A stretch of 17,933 nucleotides of DNA, taken from NCBI GenBank assembly GCA_964592405.1, contig CAZQBY010000004.1:1-17933 (forward strand), given 5' to 3'. The DNA is from an uncultured archaeon (GTDB taxonomy: Archaea > Altiarchaeota > Altiarchaeia > JAFGQM01). Under the pieces are notes generated by a model. It ran no database searches, was not told where the DNA came from, and saw only the letters and a list, made by a program, of their open reading frames with translations. The translations under genes were made by a program, and so were the position numbers. Positions 10,064-15,672 of this stretch are shown here, in pieces; position 1 is the stretch's first letter, and every line of letters begins with the position of its first letter.

Positions 10064-10426
10064 ATGAAAAAAGCGGTTTTGGTAGTGATGTTATTCCTGC
10101 TGGTTCAGCTGGCGGTCGGTGTAAATGCTCTTAATGATTCTGAAAATGTTACAGAAACAAATGTCACTGAAACACAGAGTGACAACGTTTCTCTCCCATG
10201 GCTTCCACAAATCAATACGACAGAACTTGGTGAGAAGTTTAAGAACGCTACGGAAACCGGGGTAGGGCCCCTGGATCAGGCTATTAACTTTCTTTCGGAT
10301 GCCAGTCCGTTTCTGCTACTGATAATAGGTATTCTGCTGATAGTCTTGGCGGGCTTCGGTAAGATAATAGGAATAGTACTCATTGTGCTGGCCATCATTC
10401 GACTTATCTGGCTCATGTTCTTCTAG
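10064..10426 (+). CDS. Membrane protein with signal peptide, sequon-rich linker and C-terminal two-helix hairpin
   Basis: MKK signal peptide ending VNA; six N-x-S/T sequons; C-terminal hydrophobic hairpin. Confidence 0.82.
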   Translation: MKKAVLVVMLFLLVQLAVGVNALNDSENVTETNVTETQSDNVSLPWLPQINTTELGEKFKNATETGVGPLDQAINFLSDASPFLLLIIGILLIVLAGFGKIIGIVLIVLAIIRLIWLMFF

Positions 10427-10612: not shown

Positions 10613-10981
10613 ATGTTCATTAAGAAGGAAGAAGAACTATTTGACCTTGAGGCAGTTATGCCAAAGGAGTATAAGGAGGAAGCCCTAAAAGACTCTGGGG
10701 AAATTGTGACTGTGCCCCAGCCCGGGATTACTGACCTAACGCAGGTGTGCTACCTGTGTAGCAGGGGATCCCATGAGGCAGTCCTGATACCAGTTCTTCA
10801 TCGAGGAATTGAAAAATGGGTGTGCCCCAAGTGCCTCAAATCGGCTATAGATGCGGATTCCCAGTCCAGTTATTCCAGTTCACCAGAATTTGGAGTGGCT
10901 GGGAGTGGGCTCAGTAATGGTACGGGTGGGGGCTCAACAGAGAACAGCGAATACCGCAGCCCGATGTCGATGTTCGACTGA
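10613..10981 (+). CDS. Hypothetical protein with one Zn-binding module and a Ser/Gly-rich tail
   Basis: CYLC..LIP..G..KWVCPKCL; TATA-like TTTTTATAAG at about 10572-10581 upstream. Confidence 0.72.
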   Translation: MFIKKEEELFDLEAVMPKEYKEEALKDSGEIVTVPQPGITDLTQVCYLCSRGSHEAVLIPVLHRGIEKWVCPKCLKSAIDADSQSSYSSSPEFGVAGSGLSNGTGGGSTENSEYRSPMSMFD

Positions 10982-11000: not shown

Positions 11001-12122
11001 TTACTGGTTTATCAGGGCATTGATCCTCTTTATAGCATTGAGTCTATCCCGGTTTCCCAGCTTTGCCTGTCTGATTGAATCACTCAGAGTCTCTATGACT
11101 TTCTCATAGTGCTCCAGGTTTGGTTTGTATGGAAACCCATCCTTTCCACCAAGGCAAAAACTGTATCTGCATGGATCCGTAAAGCTGGGTTCTTCACCAT
11201 AAATCAGATCTGACAAAAGTGCCAAACTCCTGACTGTGGCCGGACCAACACCCCTCATCCCAAGGAGCTGTTCAAAATCCTCAATCTTCTCCTCGTAAGT
11301 TCTCAGGAGTATCTGCCTGATTTGTTTGAGATTTATGTCCTCCAGCAAGACACGATGTCTCTTTGGCATCTCCAGAACAGGAAGCATATCAAAGTCATTT
11401 AGGGTTCTTTGTGCCCCATTCTTTATCTGCCTTGTGAGCCTTATGATCCATTCCGGGCTTTCTCCTGCCAAATCCACACAGGCCTTTCTGGAACCTTTGC
11501 TCTCTTTTGCTACCATATTGAGCGTCTTCCCAGTAGAGTCGCAGCATATAGCGTGGTGTGGCTCTTCGACAAAGCTCCTAACCTCCCCTCCCAGCCAGTG
11601 ATACCTGCGTGCATATTGTTTTTGTGGGTTCATACCCTGCTGTATAACTGCCCATTCCCCTCTTTCTGTCATAATCAGGCAGTGGTGGTAAAGATAAAAT
11701 CCATCTTGAACAGCTGCATTATCCACTTTGGCAGCGAGTTTGCTCGATTTCTTTAGGTTCTCAATCTTTTTTGTAGACAGGGAGAATGTCTCACTGTTTT
11801 TTTCAATATCATCAGGCGTCCTTTTTGAAGCCTTTCCTTTGCCCCCACATATTGCGATCCCCATTTCCTCCGGCTCAACAGCTGTCTTTAGGGCACCGAG
11901 GAGTGTGGTGGATACCCCCGAACTATGCCAGTCAAAGGCTATTGCACAGGAAAATGCCTGAAACCAGTAGGGGTCAGTGAGTCTTCTGAGGAACTCTTCC
12001 TGCGAGTATTCATGGATAATGACCTCTGTTATTGCCTTCGACAGGCGGGTCATCCTGTCAAAAAGCCATCGTGGACATTTGCCTCCGTGCAAGGGTAGAT
12101 TGGCTATGCCAGTCCGTCTCAT
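11001..12122 (-). CDS. DUF763 family protein
   Basis: RTGIANLPLHGGKCPRWLF, DPYWFQAFSC..FDWHSSG, GGKG, AKVDNAAVQDGF.LYHH, QQGMN..ARRYHW, GGKDGFPY. Start set at MRRTG (12122). Confidence 0.9.
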   Translation of the reverse strand: MRRTGIANLPLHGGKCPRWLFDRMTRLSKAITEVIIHEYSQEEFLRRLTDPYWFQAFSCAIAFDWHSSGVSTTLLGALKTAVEPEEMGIAICGGKGKASKRTPDDIEKNSETFSLSTKKIENLKKSSKLAAKVDNAAVQDGFYLYHHCLIMTERGEWAVIQQGMNPQKQYARRYHWLGGEVRSFVEEPHHAICCDSTGKTLNMVAKESKGSRKACVDLAGESPEWIIRLTRQIKNGAQRTLNDFDMLPVLEMPKRHRVLLEDINLKQIRQILLRTYEEKIEDFEQLLGMRGVGPATVRSLALLSDLIYGEEPSFTDPCRYSFCLGGKDGFPYKPNLEHYEKVIETLSDSIRQAKLGNRDRLNAIKRINALINQ

Positions 12123-12184
12123 ATAATCTACTATACCCAAAATACTATTAAAACTAACGGGGCTGTGAGCAGTGAGCAATAGTT

Positions 12185-15082
12185 TTATTGGGGACTTACA
12201 GACTGAGCGTTGTTATCCTCGTTGCATTCATCTAATGCGTTGTTGTAATCTGCCACCACGGTTGCAGTATAACTATCAACCCACCAGTCAAGCTGGTTGC
12301 AGGACTCCGGTCCGCTACCTGAGACTGTGCCAGATTTATAGAAGCTGGTAGTAAAGGTGCTGCTCTCTTGCCCGCTGTTCAGGGATGGTATGGACTCTGT
12401 CTGGCTGCCCACATTGGGGGATATCTCCACCTCTGCACTCGAAGCACCAGATGCAGCACTTCCAGTATTCCTTATCTTAAAGTTAACCTCACCCTCCAGC
12501 TCGCAGAAAGTCTCACATACTTCGCCCTGACAGGTGGTCGAGGCGCTACGATGAATGTTTGCCGAAAGTGAGCTGACATACAGGTCCGGACAGGGCGCTT
12601 GAACACATCTATAGCAACCGGTATCCTGATATTCTTCACAAATCTCGCCCGCATCACACTCACCTTCGCAGTTTGGATCTTCATATAAACCAGAACCGCA
12701 CTCTACATTCATACAATACCAACATTCGTATCCCTCATGGAAGGCGCAATAATCCGGCTCATCACACTCCTCTTCACATTCTCCCTGTGAATCATACATC
12801 CCTCTGTCAGCACATGTTTCTTCGGGTTGCCACTGCACACAATACCAGCAGTTGGTGCTCTCATCTATAGCGCAGTGGTCCGGATCCTCACACTCTGATT
12901 CACAATCACTTTGTGATCCATACATGCCCATGTCCTCGCACACCTCTGTCGGGGTACCACAGACATAGCATGGGACATCGGGATCCTCAACTACACACTC
13001 TTCTCCCTCTTCACACTCACCATCACAGTCTGAGGAGATATATTCACCCCTGCCGCAGATGCTCTGGAGATAGCAGCAGTCCGTGGCCTCGTCGCAGACA
13101 CACCTCTGATAACCCTTCCTTCTTTCCTCACACTCATCCGGAGTGTATTGGTTCTCCGGGCATCCCTCCTCTTCAATGCAGTACCAGCACTGGTCGTCGC
13201 CCATGATGCATGAGCCATCACAGCTTGCTTCACATTCAGTCTTATAGAAGAACCCATCCGGTCCACATTCTTTTTCCTCTGGTGGAGTTTCAATCAGTTC
13301 ACATTCGCAGTTCTGGTTGCATACCCCATTTTCCGGACATCCGGTTGGATCTGCTTTGGGATCGCATTCTTCATCCCCGTTTATCACCCCATCACCGCAT
13401 TTTGGTCCGCAGGTCAGCGGCAGACATTCACACTCCTGGCTGTCTATCTTTGGAGTCTGTTTCTTTTTGTACTCCTTGGCTACAGATAGCTTGGCTTTGG
13501 CTGACGCATGCGCCTCAGCTATTGAAACATATCCGTCCTTATCCGTATCTGCATGGACTGGATCATACATATCCTTAACATAGCCGTTGGTATAATCGCC
13601 ACCGTGCCATCTGCCGTTATTATCCTTGCCAAAGAATGCTACTTCATCGCTGGCAGAGGAGACTGCTACAGTTCTTCCGACTCCCTTGAGTATGTCAAAG
13701 AAGTTACCTGAATGGCATGACTCAATGACTATGCTCACATGGCAGCTCTTCTCTGGAGTCTTACAGTCCTCTTTGGGGCAGGCTGGCAGGTACTTGCTTA
13801 TGAGCTCGTCGAGCTTCTCCGGCGTGAGCACCTCCTTCCCACCCTTCTTACCATTGAGTATTATGCCGCCGCTGGGCCAGGTCTTGCCATACCTTCTCCC
13901 GCCCTTCCTCAAGCCGTGGCCTATGATGTATATCATGACCCTGTCAACGCACTTGACCTCGTTGCCTAACTTCTTGAACGCGGCTTCTATGCCCGCGAGG
14001 CTGCTGTAGCCGCCGGCCGTGACGCCGTTGTCCGACATCTCTCCAATCTCATCGTCCCAGTGCGGCGCTAGGTAATGCCCCCTGTCATAGCCCTGCTCAC
14101 CCAGCATCCGCCAGATATCATCTGCCGAGTCCATTGCCTGCCGTCTGCGACTGTTATCCCCTGCATTGATTACGATGGCATGATACTTCACAGGTGTGGT
14201 GCATGGACCTTCATTCGGCCCAGGACCTCTTGGTCCTCCACCACCTCCGCCGCCCGGTCCCTTGGGGCACCTGCAGTTCGCCTTACACTTACCCGGACAG
14301 GCCTTGTCATCTTTGCCGTCACATTGTTCACCGGCATCCTTCACATTATCACCACAAATCGGCTTCCTCTTGCCGCCACCACCACCTCTTTTGCGGTGTC
14401 CGGCGTTGAGTTCTACCAGAAAATCCTGTATCTCTCCATATTCAAAGGCCCCCTGTCCCTTCCAGTCCTTATAATCTATGGGTTTACGGGTTATTGCGAG
14501 CCGAGCCCATACCGGTGTGGGCATTATCATACCACTCCCCCAGTTGAACCAGTCTGTCTCTACCCATTCCGTAGAGCCGGGTGCTATTTCAATCTCTTGA
14601 TTCTGGATGGCCCACTCCTTGCCATTCTGTTTTCCACCCCATGTACCATTCTTATCAAAGTCAAACAGCACGTTTATATACCTTTTCCCTTTGGGGGCAG
14701 TATCATCTATCGTGACCTTGAACTTGAGCCGGGCCTTGGCCGGGATGCTGACCGCCATGATTAGAAGATAAACCGGATCATCCCTGTCAGTGTCCACCAG
14801 ATTCTGAATGCCGTCCGGATCAGCCGGATCGTTGGCATCGTCTTCGGCGCTGACCTCTGTGCCTATCATCTCACCACCGGGCTTAAGGATATGGCCGCCT
14901 ATCAGGCCAGAGGTGCTGTTATATAGCGTTGGAAACCTTCCGGCAATTCCCGGATATGCATCCATACCATCCGGCGCATCGCCATAATCGCCGTTTGGGG
15001 CTTGTGCTTGTGCAGAAACAAAACCAAAGAAGACTATAGACACAACAGCTGCAAGTATCCACAATCCTTTCCTATCCATCAT
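12185..15082 (-). CDS. Large secreted multidomain clan CD cysteine peptidase (GEVED-like, caspase/C13-like, Cys-rich repeats, CARDB-like)
   Basis: Signal peptide; DYGDAPD..FDFDKNGTW..WARL..GEIQD; two CGDxxxxxxExCD modules; YIIGHG (His389) and IVIESCHSGNF (Cys456) dyad; DTDKDGYVSIAEA Ca-loop; six Cys-rich repeats; PDLYV..VADYNNALDECNEDNN C-terminus. Confidence 0.85.
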   Translation of the reverse strand: MMDRKGLWILAAVVSIVFFGFVSAQAQAPNGDYGDAPDGMDAYPGIAGRFPTLYNSTSGLIGGHILKPGGEMIGTEVSAEDDANDPADPDGIQNLVDTDRDDPVYLLIMAVSIPAKARLKFKVTIDDTAPKGKRYINVLFDFDKNGTWGGKQNGKEWAIQNQEIEIAPGSTEWVETDWFNWGSGMIMPTPVWARLAITRKPIDYKDWKGQGAFEYGEIQDFLVELNAGHRKRGGGGGKRKPICGDNVKDAGEQCDGKDDKACPGKCKANCRCPKGPGGGGGGGPRGPGPNEGPCTTPVKYHAIVINAGDNSRRRQAMDSADDIWRMLGEQGYDRGHYLAPHWDDEIGEMSDNGVTAGGYSSLAGIEAAFKKLGNEVKCVDRVMIYIIGHGLRKGGRRYGKTWPSGGIILNGKKGGKEVLTPEKLDELISKYLPACPKEDCKTPEKSCHVSIVIESCHSGNFFDILKGVGRTVAVSSASDEVAFFGKDNNGRWHGGDYTNGYVKDMYDPVHADTDKDGYVSIAEAHASAKAKLSVAKEYKKKQTPKIDSQECECLPLTCGPKCGDGVINGDEECDPKADPTGCPENGVCNQNCECELIETPPEEKECGPDGFFYKTECEASCDGSCIMGDDQCWYCIEEEGCPENQYTPDECEERRKGYQRCVCDEATDCCYLQSICGRGEYISSDCDGECEEGEECVVEDPDVPCYVCGTPTEVCEDMGMYGSQSDCESECEDPDHCAIDESTNCWYCVQWQPEETCADRGMYDSQGECEEECDEPDYCAFHEGYECWYCMNVECGSGLYEDPNCEGECDAGEICEEYQDTGCYRCVQAPCPDLYVSSLSANIHRSASTTCQGEVCETFCELEGEVNFKIRNTGSAASGASSAEVEISPNVGSQTESIPSLNSGQESSTFTTSFYKSGTVSGSGPESCNQLDWWVDSYTATVVADYNNALDECNEDNNAQSVSPQ
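12594..13271 (-). repeat. About six tandem acidic Cys-rich protein repeats within the peptidase gene
   Basis: Approximate unit C-x4-6-Y-x3-5-C-x3-C-x3-5-C-x6-8-C-[WY]-x-C; one unit is degenerate. The two closest copies (CEDMGMYGSQSDCESECEDPDHC..CWYC and CADRGMYDSQGECEEECDEPDYC..CWYC) are 126 nt apart. Confidence 0.85.
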
Positions 15083-15672
15083 ATAGCCTGTATCTCAATA
15101 ACTCCTCCGCAGTCTTCTCCGGCATTGAACATGTCCTCACCGTTTATGTCTGGAGGCCATGACTCCTCATACACGGTCTTCTCACCGGTCGAGGCATCTA
15201 TAAATATGTATCTAACATCGTGCTCGAAGAATGCACCCGGAACCTCATCAACATAGGCAAACCACACCGGGCCTTTAACAGAATACTTGTCTGGATCTCC
15301 TTGTGTAGCTACCTTGTCGCCAGATTGCAGTTGCCTGCAGAATAAGTATGCTATTTCGTTGCCGGTCCTGAAGGCCTCTTCTATCACGGCCTCCATAGCT
15401 CCATTTTCAGAAACTGTTGAGCTCCCTCCGGGGGTTCCAACATCTACCAAACCACCTCCCGGCTCATGGGGCTGTGCTGTTTCACCGCCGGACGGTCCGC
15501 GGGGGCCTGTTGGCAAGAAGTCTTTTGCCCAAAAAGCGATAAATAAGAGGATTACAATCACAACAACAAGGCCTATCACAAGGCCTCCCGCTCTTACAGC
15601 CTTGCTTTTGTGTGCACTTTCTTTGTTCCCGGGGGGTGTTTGTGTATTTCCCGCTCCACCACCCTCTGCCAT
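15079..15672 (-). CDS. Membrane-anchored protein translationally coupled to the peptidase
   Basis: N-proximal TM helix, Pro/Gly linker, then a domain with WFAYVDEVPGAFFEHDVRYIFIDASTG. Its TGA overlaps the peptidase ATG (ATGATG). TATA-like TTTTTAAAG on the minus strand at 15705-15713. Confidence 0.82.
   Translation of the reverse strand: MAEGGGAGNTQTPPGNKESAHKSKAVRAGGLVIGLVVVIVILLFIAFWAKDFLPTGPRGPSGGETAQPHEPGGGLVDVGTPGGSSTVSENGAMEAVIEEAFRTGNEIAYLFCRQLQSGDKVATQGDPDKYSVKGPVWFAYVDEVPGAFFEHDVRYIFIDASTGEKTVYEESWPPDINGEDMFNAGEDCGGVIEIQAI

Follow-up and report, generated by a model that had tools for sequence, protein, structure and literature searches.

In a 17,933-nucleotide stretch of DNA from an uncultured archaeon of the Altiarchaeota lineage JAFGQM01 (contig CAZQBY010000004.1 of assembly GCA_964592405.1; the whole stretch is hereafter called the window), we analyzed two adjacent genes of the reverse strand. 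The first one encodes a small membrane protein (P0002, the partner) with an unnamed domain, designated here par, and the second one encodes a large cysteine peptidase (P0001). Both open reading frames (ORFs), described with an ATGATG overlap in an earlier sequence-only reading of the window, were located (Table 1). The TGA stop codon of the partner gene and the ATG of the peptidase gene share 4 nucleotides (..ATATGATGG..), and the N-terminus of the peptidase is Met-Met. The TATA-like box TTTTTAAA, proposed in the same reading as the pair's own, was invariant in five of five aligned upstream regions from three genera, including locus L011 with upstream genes on the opposite strand; the box probably serves as a promoter. 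The source genome (1.13 Mb, 22 contigs) was 87% complete, and near-identical DNA (share of at least 0.70) occurred in hydrothermal vent metagenome runs from three studies.

Table 1. Features of the partner and peptidase genes and of the region upstream of them (coordinates in the window)
Feature	Coordinates	Strand	Remarks
TATA-like box TTTTTAAA	15706..15713	-	about 34 nucleotides upstream of partner ATG
Partner gene (P0002)	15079..15672	-	197 amino acids (aa); predicted cytoplasmic tail, one transmembrane (TM) helix, Gly/Pro linker, conserved extracellular domain
TM anchor, residues 29–49	15526..15588	-	Kyte–Doolittle hydropathy 3.27; helix 24–52 in model
par domain, residues 85–197	15082..15420	-	model confidence (pLDDT) >95 over residues 71–197; outside all Pfam/NCBIfam models
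Loop 144–151 (VPGAFFEH)	15220..15243	-	predicted cover of the peptidase active site
Peptidase gene (P0001)	12185..15082	-	965 aa
Probable signal peptide, residues 1–26	15005..15082	-	MMDRKGLWILAAVVSIVFFGFVSAQA; by eye and hydropathy
GEVED-like domain, residues 28–226	14405..15001	-	scored 5e-110 by the domain hidden Markov model (HMM) built here
Lys/Arg- and Gly-rich linker with one Cys-rich CGDN..C repeat, residues 227–290	14213..14404	-	
Clan CD peptidase domain, residues 291–560	13403..14212	-	fold, profile and dyad matches
Catalytic His389 (IIGHG)	13916..13918	-	invariant; aligned to legumain/metacaspase-4 His
Catalytic Cys456 (ESCHSGNF)	13715..13717	-	invariant; aligned to legumain/metacaspase-4 Cys
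EF-hand-like loop DTDKDGYVSIAE, residues 512–523	13514..13549	-	sub-threshold Pfam EF-hand_1, E 0.02
Acidic Cys-rich region, residues 561–830	12593..13402	-	second CGDG repeat and CWYC-type motifs
CARDB domain, residues 856–961	12200..12517	-	Pfam PF07705, 37.4 bits (cut-off 22.7)

The peptidase domain of P0001 is a member of clan CD (caspase–haemoglobinase fold), as follows from the fold, the catalytic dyad, and the profile matches. The AlphaFold model of residues 285–560 (predicted local distance difference test, pLDDT, of 91.2; predicted template modeling score, pTM, of 0.91) had 300 Foldseek matches at E ≤ 1e-3, with legumain (3e-8), MALT1, and caspase-7 at the top. The VIA comparison of this model with 48161 chains gave legumain 4aw9_A (Z 19.8, root-mean-square deviation (rmsd) 3.2, 209 residues aligned), asparaginyl ligase 5h0i_B (Z 19.8), and glycosylphosphatidylinositol (GPI) transamidase 7w72_K and metacaspase-4 (both Z 18.9), with caspases (about Z 16), gingipain 4ief_B (Z 10.9), and C11 enzymes (about Z 9.4) in lower rows; C13 and C14 chains covered Z values from 19.8 to 13 versus about 9 for unrelated Rossmann-type rows. 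Ten relatives of the domain, with 43–100% identity over it, were retrieved. His389 and Cys456, named as the clan CD dyad in the sequence-only reading, were invariant in ten of ten family members and in 21 of 21 sequences when fused forms (see below) were added. His389 aligned with His of the YSGHG motif of metacaspase-4 and of DHG of legumain, while Cys456 aligned with Cys of DSCHSG and EACESG, respectively, which is Ala in the C139A entry of metacaspase-4. The wider peptidase alignment, used as a profile against PDB sequences, matched metacaspase-4 (1.6e-13) and legumain (5.2e-9). The caspase-like label proposed earlier was kept at the clan level, because P0001 was below the cut-off of Pfam Peptidase_C13 (PF01650; 14.2 bits over its full length and 18.5 bits for the domain taken alone versus 22.8). 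Pfam Peptidase_C14 (PF00656; cut-off of 21.4 bits) did not match P0001 at E ≤ 10; a precomputed PF00656 hit was present in the relative P0029.

The N-terminus of P0001 resembles a signal peptide ending with AQA, and its relatives have similar N-termini directly ahead of a conserved GDYGDAPD start; no hydrophobic segment was found by hydropathy in the last 60 residues. Both observations agree with the signal peptide and the absence of a C-terminal anchor described previously. Pfam GEVED (PF20009) did not match P0001, while the homologous regions of P0046, P0052, P0057, P0073, and P0078 were above its cut-off, and a precomputed hit of this family was available for the relative P0028. CARDB was the only domain of P0001 above a Pfam cut-off. 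The acidic region of 270 residues contained 37 cysteines and repeated C..CWYC-type units at a net charge of −64 and had no family match. Within the catalytic domain, the EF-hand-like loop was canonical (D512-x-D-x-D-G-x-V-x-x-x-E523) with invariant D512, D516, V519, S520, and E523, and might bind Ca2+; this EF-hand-type loop DTDKDGYVSIAE was kept in the catalytic domain across the whole family, including fused forms. The acidic residues D309, E454, and D496, conserved in alignments of the family and fused forms, may line the S1 pocket and favor basic P1 residues.

One relative, P0030 (681 aa), deviated from this scheme: in place of the first half of its clan CD domain, catalytic His included, it has a segment that bears the zinc-metallopeptidase-like motif HEAGHMLGLDD, while the Cys half and the CARDB tail were kept. 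P0030 may be a chimera or a misassembly.

The partner had no match in Pfam (2025 copy) or NCBIfam (release 20), and only chance-level rows resulted when either its sequence or its profile was compared with PDB sequences. A look-up in a protein atlas gave unnamed clusters at 0.87–0.88, under the lead threshold. The membrane anchor reported earlier corresponded to a single hydrophobic helix (Table 1) preceded by four basic residues, which fits an N-in, C-out anchor. The close family of the partner comprised 18 proteins of 170–220 aa with 47–99% identity and a TM segment in each of them. Conservation of par, analyzed in 64 sequences, peaked in and around one loop: H151 was invariant (64/64), W137, F138, D142, P145, F149, G163, W172, P174, and N177 were at least 90% conserved, and position 154 was occupied by Arg or Lys in 62 sequences. 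The Cys pair 112/188 was found in only about one third of them. The partner model consists of one helix (89–100), an eight-strand sheet, and a short C-terminal helix.

The par domain was not restricted to this archaeal family. An exhaustive profile search over 1.84 billion representatives retrieved 516 clusters at E ≤ 1e-3 (98 at E ≤ 1e-10), always matched at profile positions of about 85–190; the absence of longer partner relatives in a word-index search (1230 candidates) was thereby overturned. The best 150 of the 516 clusters were examined, all of them with our own HMMs for par, the GEVED-like domain, and the peptidase, and 98 of them with Pfam. A clan CD domain, detected by Pfam C13/C14 or our own HMM, was present in the same chain as par in 47 of the 150 representatives, namely in 40/48 proteins of at least 600 aa, in 7/31 proteins of 300–599 aa, and in 0/71 proteins shorter than 300 aa. 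Thus, the partner motif does occur fused to clan CD peptidases, as the sequence-only reading had supposed. In all 42 chains where both domains were placed by HMM, par was N-terminal of the peptidase. Twelve representatives had exactly the architecture of par, GEVED-like, and peptidase domains with strong scores, and six further proteins had par with the GEVED-like domain alone. In the class of at least 600 aa, Pfam alone gave a C13/C14 hit at E ≤ 1e-3 in 26 of 48 proteins; the curated cut-off was passed by 22 of these and missed by the other 4. Among the 98 proteins scanned with Pfam, Peptidase_C13 and Peptidase_C14 were the only catalytic domains found, and no model covered par; the source names of par proteins were all 'hypothetical protein'. 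Adhesion and display domains (PKD, Big_7, dockerin, and CARDB) were found by Pfam in the bacterial fused forms. These forms begin with lipobox-like or signal sequences, so par would be a membrane-proximal module there too. The homology findings had E-values from 1e-20 to 1e-130, which rules out chance.

Besides the fused forms, par occurred as four or three tandem copies without an enzyme domain, or in a C-terminal position, in P0035 (457 aa), P0040 (331 aa), and P0076 (379 aa). In Chlorobiota proteins of about 380 aa, par was C-terminal, after beta-rich regions. Such tandem and C-terminal par proteins are candidates for free-standing inhibitors.

In archaea, the two proteins were strictly linked. 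Of 61 genomes from the same class, six (G000–G004 and G056) had true partner matches, and exactly those six also had the peptidase domain; two more partner matches were weak and covered only the TM and low-complexity part. The partner and the peptidase adjoined on the same strand in 6/6 genomes, which answers positively the question of adjacency raised by the sequence-only reading. In G000–G004, the partner ORF was directly followed by the peptidase ORF, with a 4-nucleotide overlap in the window and in L010, a 17-nucleotide overlap in L011, and a 32-nucleotide gap in L006. Flanking genes differed in the other genus, so the two-gene unit itself is the conserved element. The break was in the identical position in five genomes of three genera, all nine par-less peptidases of the family had a new signal-peptide-like N-terminus after it, and the TM anchor of the partner was not found in fused forms.

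In G056, which belongs to another family of the class, par was fused to the GEVED-like domain in an ORF of 372 aa, and the peptidase followed in the same frame after a TAG codon. This single TAG (2515–2517 of locus L007, 1399–3324) could be a real boundary elsewhere, a recent nonsense mutation, or an error. Its reading as pyrrolysine was rejected, as no PylS match was found in the G056 genome, which is 74% complete. In Dehalococcoidia, par, the GEVED-like domain, and the peptidase formed one ORF in four of five loci in a contig scan, the fifth locus being cut at the contig end. Further 16 par matches were found in 13 of 81 Dehalococcoidia genomes; 11 of them had all three modules, and among the others, two were cut at the locus end, three had par with a weak peptidase match, and one was par alone.

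A careful tree of the GEVED-like and peptidase region, rooted at the midpoint, placed eight of the nine par-less peptidases in one clade (98/98) beside a clade of fused forms (96/97); three other fused forms branched outside these (100/100). A branch with a support of only 65/31 had all nine par-less peptidases on one side. The tree of the par domain was poorly resolved; 18 of 19 TM-anchored partners were together, within a group of par domains of fused forms. A single fission of a fused ancestor is the simplest reading of these sequence data.

The complex was predicted from peptidase residues 27–560 (alignment of 21 rows) and partner residues 85–197 (64 rows). It had an interface score (ipSAE) of 0.84 (0.86, 0.83, and 0.84 in the separate runs) versus 0.20 for the best of three controls, and so passed these controls. 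In this prediction, which the sequence-only reading had proposed to make, the conserved loop of the partner was placed on the catalytic His and Cys. Runs agreed in at least 90% of contacts, and the pLDDT of the partner was at least 90. In the calibration of the score, 58 of 80 solved complexes attained the pass mark, as did 2 of 110 mismatched pairs; for the present case these counts are only rough, because our own alignments were used. Partner residues 146–149 were predicted to contact peptidase residues 389, 390, 456, and 481–484 with an expected error of 0.7–1.0 Å, the C-terminal strand of the partner (192–196) was paired with residues 104–108 (more broadly, 103–111) of the GEVED-like domain, and peptidase residues 223–230 were within the interface. 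A solved complex could not have been remembered by the method, since the par profile matches no PDB sequence. According to this model, par would bind the peptidase, and loop 144–151 would cover its active site. The checks suggested in the sequence-only reading, as far as they were run, all turned out in favor of its interpretation.

Taken together, these data suggest, with a probability of roughly 60%, that the pair is the split form of a widespread, previously undescribed fused protein, and that the partner is a membrane-tethered, prodomain-like cap and dock, which arose by gene fission and acts in trans. The fused protein would be a clan CD cysteine peptidase, either secreted or anchored by a lipid, in which the unnamed N-terminal domain par (about 110 aa) and a GEVED-like domain precede the catalytic domain of caspase/legumain fold. 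Fission would have occurred in one archaeal lineage, where par came to stand on a chain of its own that retained a TM anchor, and the peptidase acquired a separate signal peptide. The pair would be transcribed from its own TATA-like promoter and translated from overlapping or closely spaced frames, and both products would be exported. Outside the membrane, par would bind the peptidase, with its C-terminal strand joining the GEVED-like domain and loop 144–151 lying over His389 and Cys456. The partner would thus hold the anchorless protease at the cell surface and, like a prodomain supplied in trans, maintain it in a latent state; both of these roles are inferred. The partner may also aid in folding of the protease. 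Release of the cap would need a trigger, with Ca2+ acting on the EF-like loop, proteolytic cleavage of the partner, and a substrate as the candidates. To the broader proposal that par is a new widespread class of active-site caps dedicated to secreted clan CD peptidases, which this archaeal lineage turned into a separate membrane-anchored subunit, we give slightly less than even odds. In that case, the result would be a two-component surface protease in which one small protein sets both the place and the timing of activity, and the bacterial stand-alone and tandem forms would be trans-inhibitors of caspase/legumain-type enzymes.

Several results weigh against this interpretation, and the first group of them concerns the fold of the partner. 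In the VIA comparison of the partner model with 48161 chains, the three top rows were of PepSY type: CD1622 4exr_A (Z 5.9, rmsd 2.8, 64 aligned), the C-terminal domain of YpeB 5boi_A (Z 5.6), and YpmB 2gu3_A (Z 5.1), with 60–68 residues aligned. Weaker rows included the propeptides of vibriolysin (3nqz_A, Z 4.3) and fungalysin (4k90_B, Z 3.6) and other PepSY-bearing entries. The kinship with PepSY and propeptide folds considered in the sequence-only reading was therefore reflected in the top three rows, but only at Z 5.1–5.9, which is a weak likeness below the VIA caution line of Z 8, and the Foldseek comparison of the model with PDB gave nothing at E ≤ 0.001 (best E 0.09). Pfam PepSY (PF03413) did not match P0002 at E ≤ 10 and matched only four of 64 members weakly (best E 0.17), and hhalign of par with one PepSY protein aligned 11 columns with a probability of 0.3, with a 'vDAxTG' motif shared in this comparison. 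Because of the low Z and the failed sequence tests, the fold is called PepSY-like at most, and par is probably not a member of the PepSY family. No gingipain prodomain, cystatin-type, chagasin-type, or other inhibitor chain beyond the PepSY and propeptide rows was conspicuous in the VIA list of the partner, which does not speak against such folds.

The same interpretation is further weakened by the distribution of par, which is not exclusive to clan CD peptidases: eight of the 48 long representatives (at least 600 aa) lacked a clan CD domain, 71 of the 150 were shorter than 300 aa and had none in the chain, and tandem-repeat proteins exist, P0035 with its four copies among them. The complex score reflects model confidence obtained with untested alignments and may echo the packing in single-chain relatives, although such an echo would still show the position of par. 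The signal peptide MMDRKGLWILAAVVSIVFFGFVSAQA of the peptidase was called by eye and hydropathy, and no RNA run was listed among the runs with near-identical DNA of the locus. Finally, a tethered cap beside its enzyme needs a release mechanism, for which only candidates can be named.

Other explanations of the pair were considered. The partner might be a membrane dock for an anchorless surface protease with no effect on catalysis. The TM anchor kept on the partner, the peptidase C-terminus lacking a hydrophobic segment, the membrane-proximal place of par in bacterial fused forms, and that portion of the predicted interface which lies at a distance from the active site and consists of strand pairing to the GEVED-like domain are all in line with this explanation. 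However, the contacts predicted with the lowest error include His389 and Cys456, and the best-conserved residues of the partner lie in the contacting loop, which a simple tether would not need; a dock of this kind is unlikely.

Rather more doubtful is a role of par as a chaperone-like prodomain, required once to fold the catalytic domain and then degraded, with no lasting regulation or docking. N-terminal propeptides of secreted peptidases are often folding helpers, including the PepSY/FTP propeptides of M4 enzymes, and this analogy, together with the propeptides among the weaker fold matches (3nqz_A and 4k90_B) and the tight gene overlap favoring joint production of both proteins, speaks for such a helper. 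On the other hand, the TM anchor was kept in all 18 family members and is unneeded for a transient helper, no processing site was evident, and the fold matches were weak.

It is improbable that the partner is a permanent subunit presenting substrate to a transpeptidase or ligase, whose clan CD domain would join or process proteins of the cell surface in the manner of GPI transamidase or asparaginyl ligases. GPI transamidase and asparaginyl ligase tied with legumain in the VIA comparison, and GPI transamidase works with membrane subunits; however, ties of fold are silent on chemistry, the PKD, Big_7, dockerin, and CARDB domains of fused bacterial proteins are typical of secreted hydrolases, and the predicted loop fills the catalytic site instead of leaving it open. 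That errors in sequencing or assembly split a single gene in two, an idea prompted by the fused homologues and the single in-frame TAG of G056, can be practically dismissed because of the identical break in five genomes of three genera and the new signal-like N-termini, and the partner's own TM anchor argues against it as well.

A cap acting in trans may be compared with known systems. It is common for clan CD enzymes to be kept blocked by a prodomain or an N-terminal region, the latter in metacaspases, for example (PMC4357240). Gingipains (MEROPS C25), exemplified by the RgpB complex of prodomain and mature enzyme (4ief), resemble the pair studied here in being secreted clan CD enzymes with an N-terminal blocking domain (229 aa in gingipain; PMC4357240); their fold is also related to that of our catalytic domain (see the VIA rows above). 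In gingipains, the prodomain is covalent and removed by autoprocessing, whereas here the cap is a separate TM-anchored gene product, and capping is predicted. In the PDB and VIA searches, par matched the gingipain prodomain neither in sequence nor in fold.

Legumain (C13) is the best fold match of the peptidase and shares with it the E-x-C-x-S-G motif and the aligned His and Cys; its cap, according to PMC4357240, is a C-terminal prodomain, unlike the N-terminal par. Metacaspases and orthocaspases (C14B) are the closest in sequence, with the SCHSG motif in common and a similarly high fold score. In some metacaspases, the N-terminal region blocks the active site, and these enzymes are described as Ca2+-dependent (PMC4357240). 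As regards specificity, the conserved acidic residues of our peptidase suggest a basic P1 residue. Unlike metacaspases, P0001 is predicted to be extracellular and is equipped with GEVED-like, Cys-rich, and CARDB modules and a separate cap protein.

PepSY modules weakly resemble the modeled par in their core of one helix on a small antiparallel sheet. YpeB is membrane-anchored and encoded beside its separately encoded secreted enzyme partner SleB, and thus appears to be a functional parallel of the partner and peptidase. At the same time, par is larger, has an extra conserved loop, is paired with a clan CD cysteine peptidase, and is not recognized by the Pfam PepSY model.

Holding a clan CD protease in check by means of a blocking domain is a known principle, well established in gingipains, legumain, and metacaspases; the par family, its breadth, and its occurrence as a separate anchored gene are new. 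Nothing on the par domain or on the two-gene arrangement surfaced in full-text literature searches, as judged from listings and abstract openings, and par lies outside Pfam, NCBIfam, and PDB in spite of its more than 500 clusters. The natural split offers a ready-made experiment, in which the cap and the enzyme can be produced apart from each other, combined, and titrated. Should the cap prove inhibitory, it would add a new scaffold to the protein inhibitors of caspase/legumain-type enzymes, would give a name and a role to hundreds of 'hypothetical' proteins, and would open a first way to study how little-known uncultured archaea carry out proteolysis at their surface.

Regarding the neighboring genes, a DUF763 gene (1.7e-132; 11001–12179, reverse strand) followed the peptidase gene on the same strand after a gap of 5 nucleotides; its link to the pair is doubtful. 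It was rejected as a third member of the system, because the pair in G003 had no such neighbor, the next gene there being a 734-aa ORF on the opposite strand. Two ORFs of the forward strand in the window, 10064–10426 (120 aa) and 10613–10981 (122 aa), had no Pfam match. The window is archaeal in its gene content, with genes for a thermosome subunit, the archaeal-type PheRS beta chain, and an Lrp/AsnC regulator.

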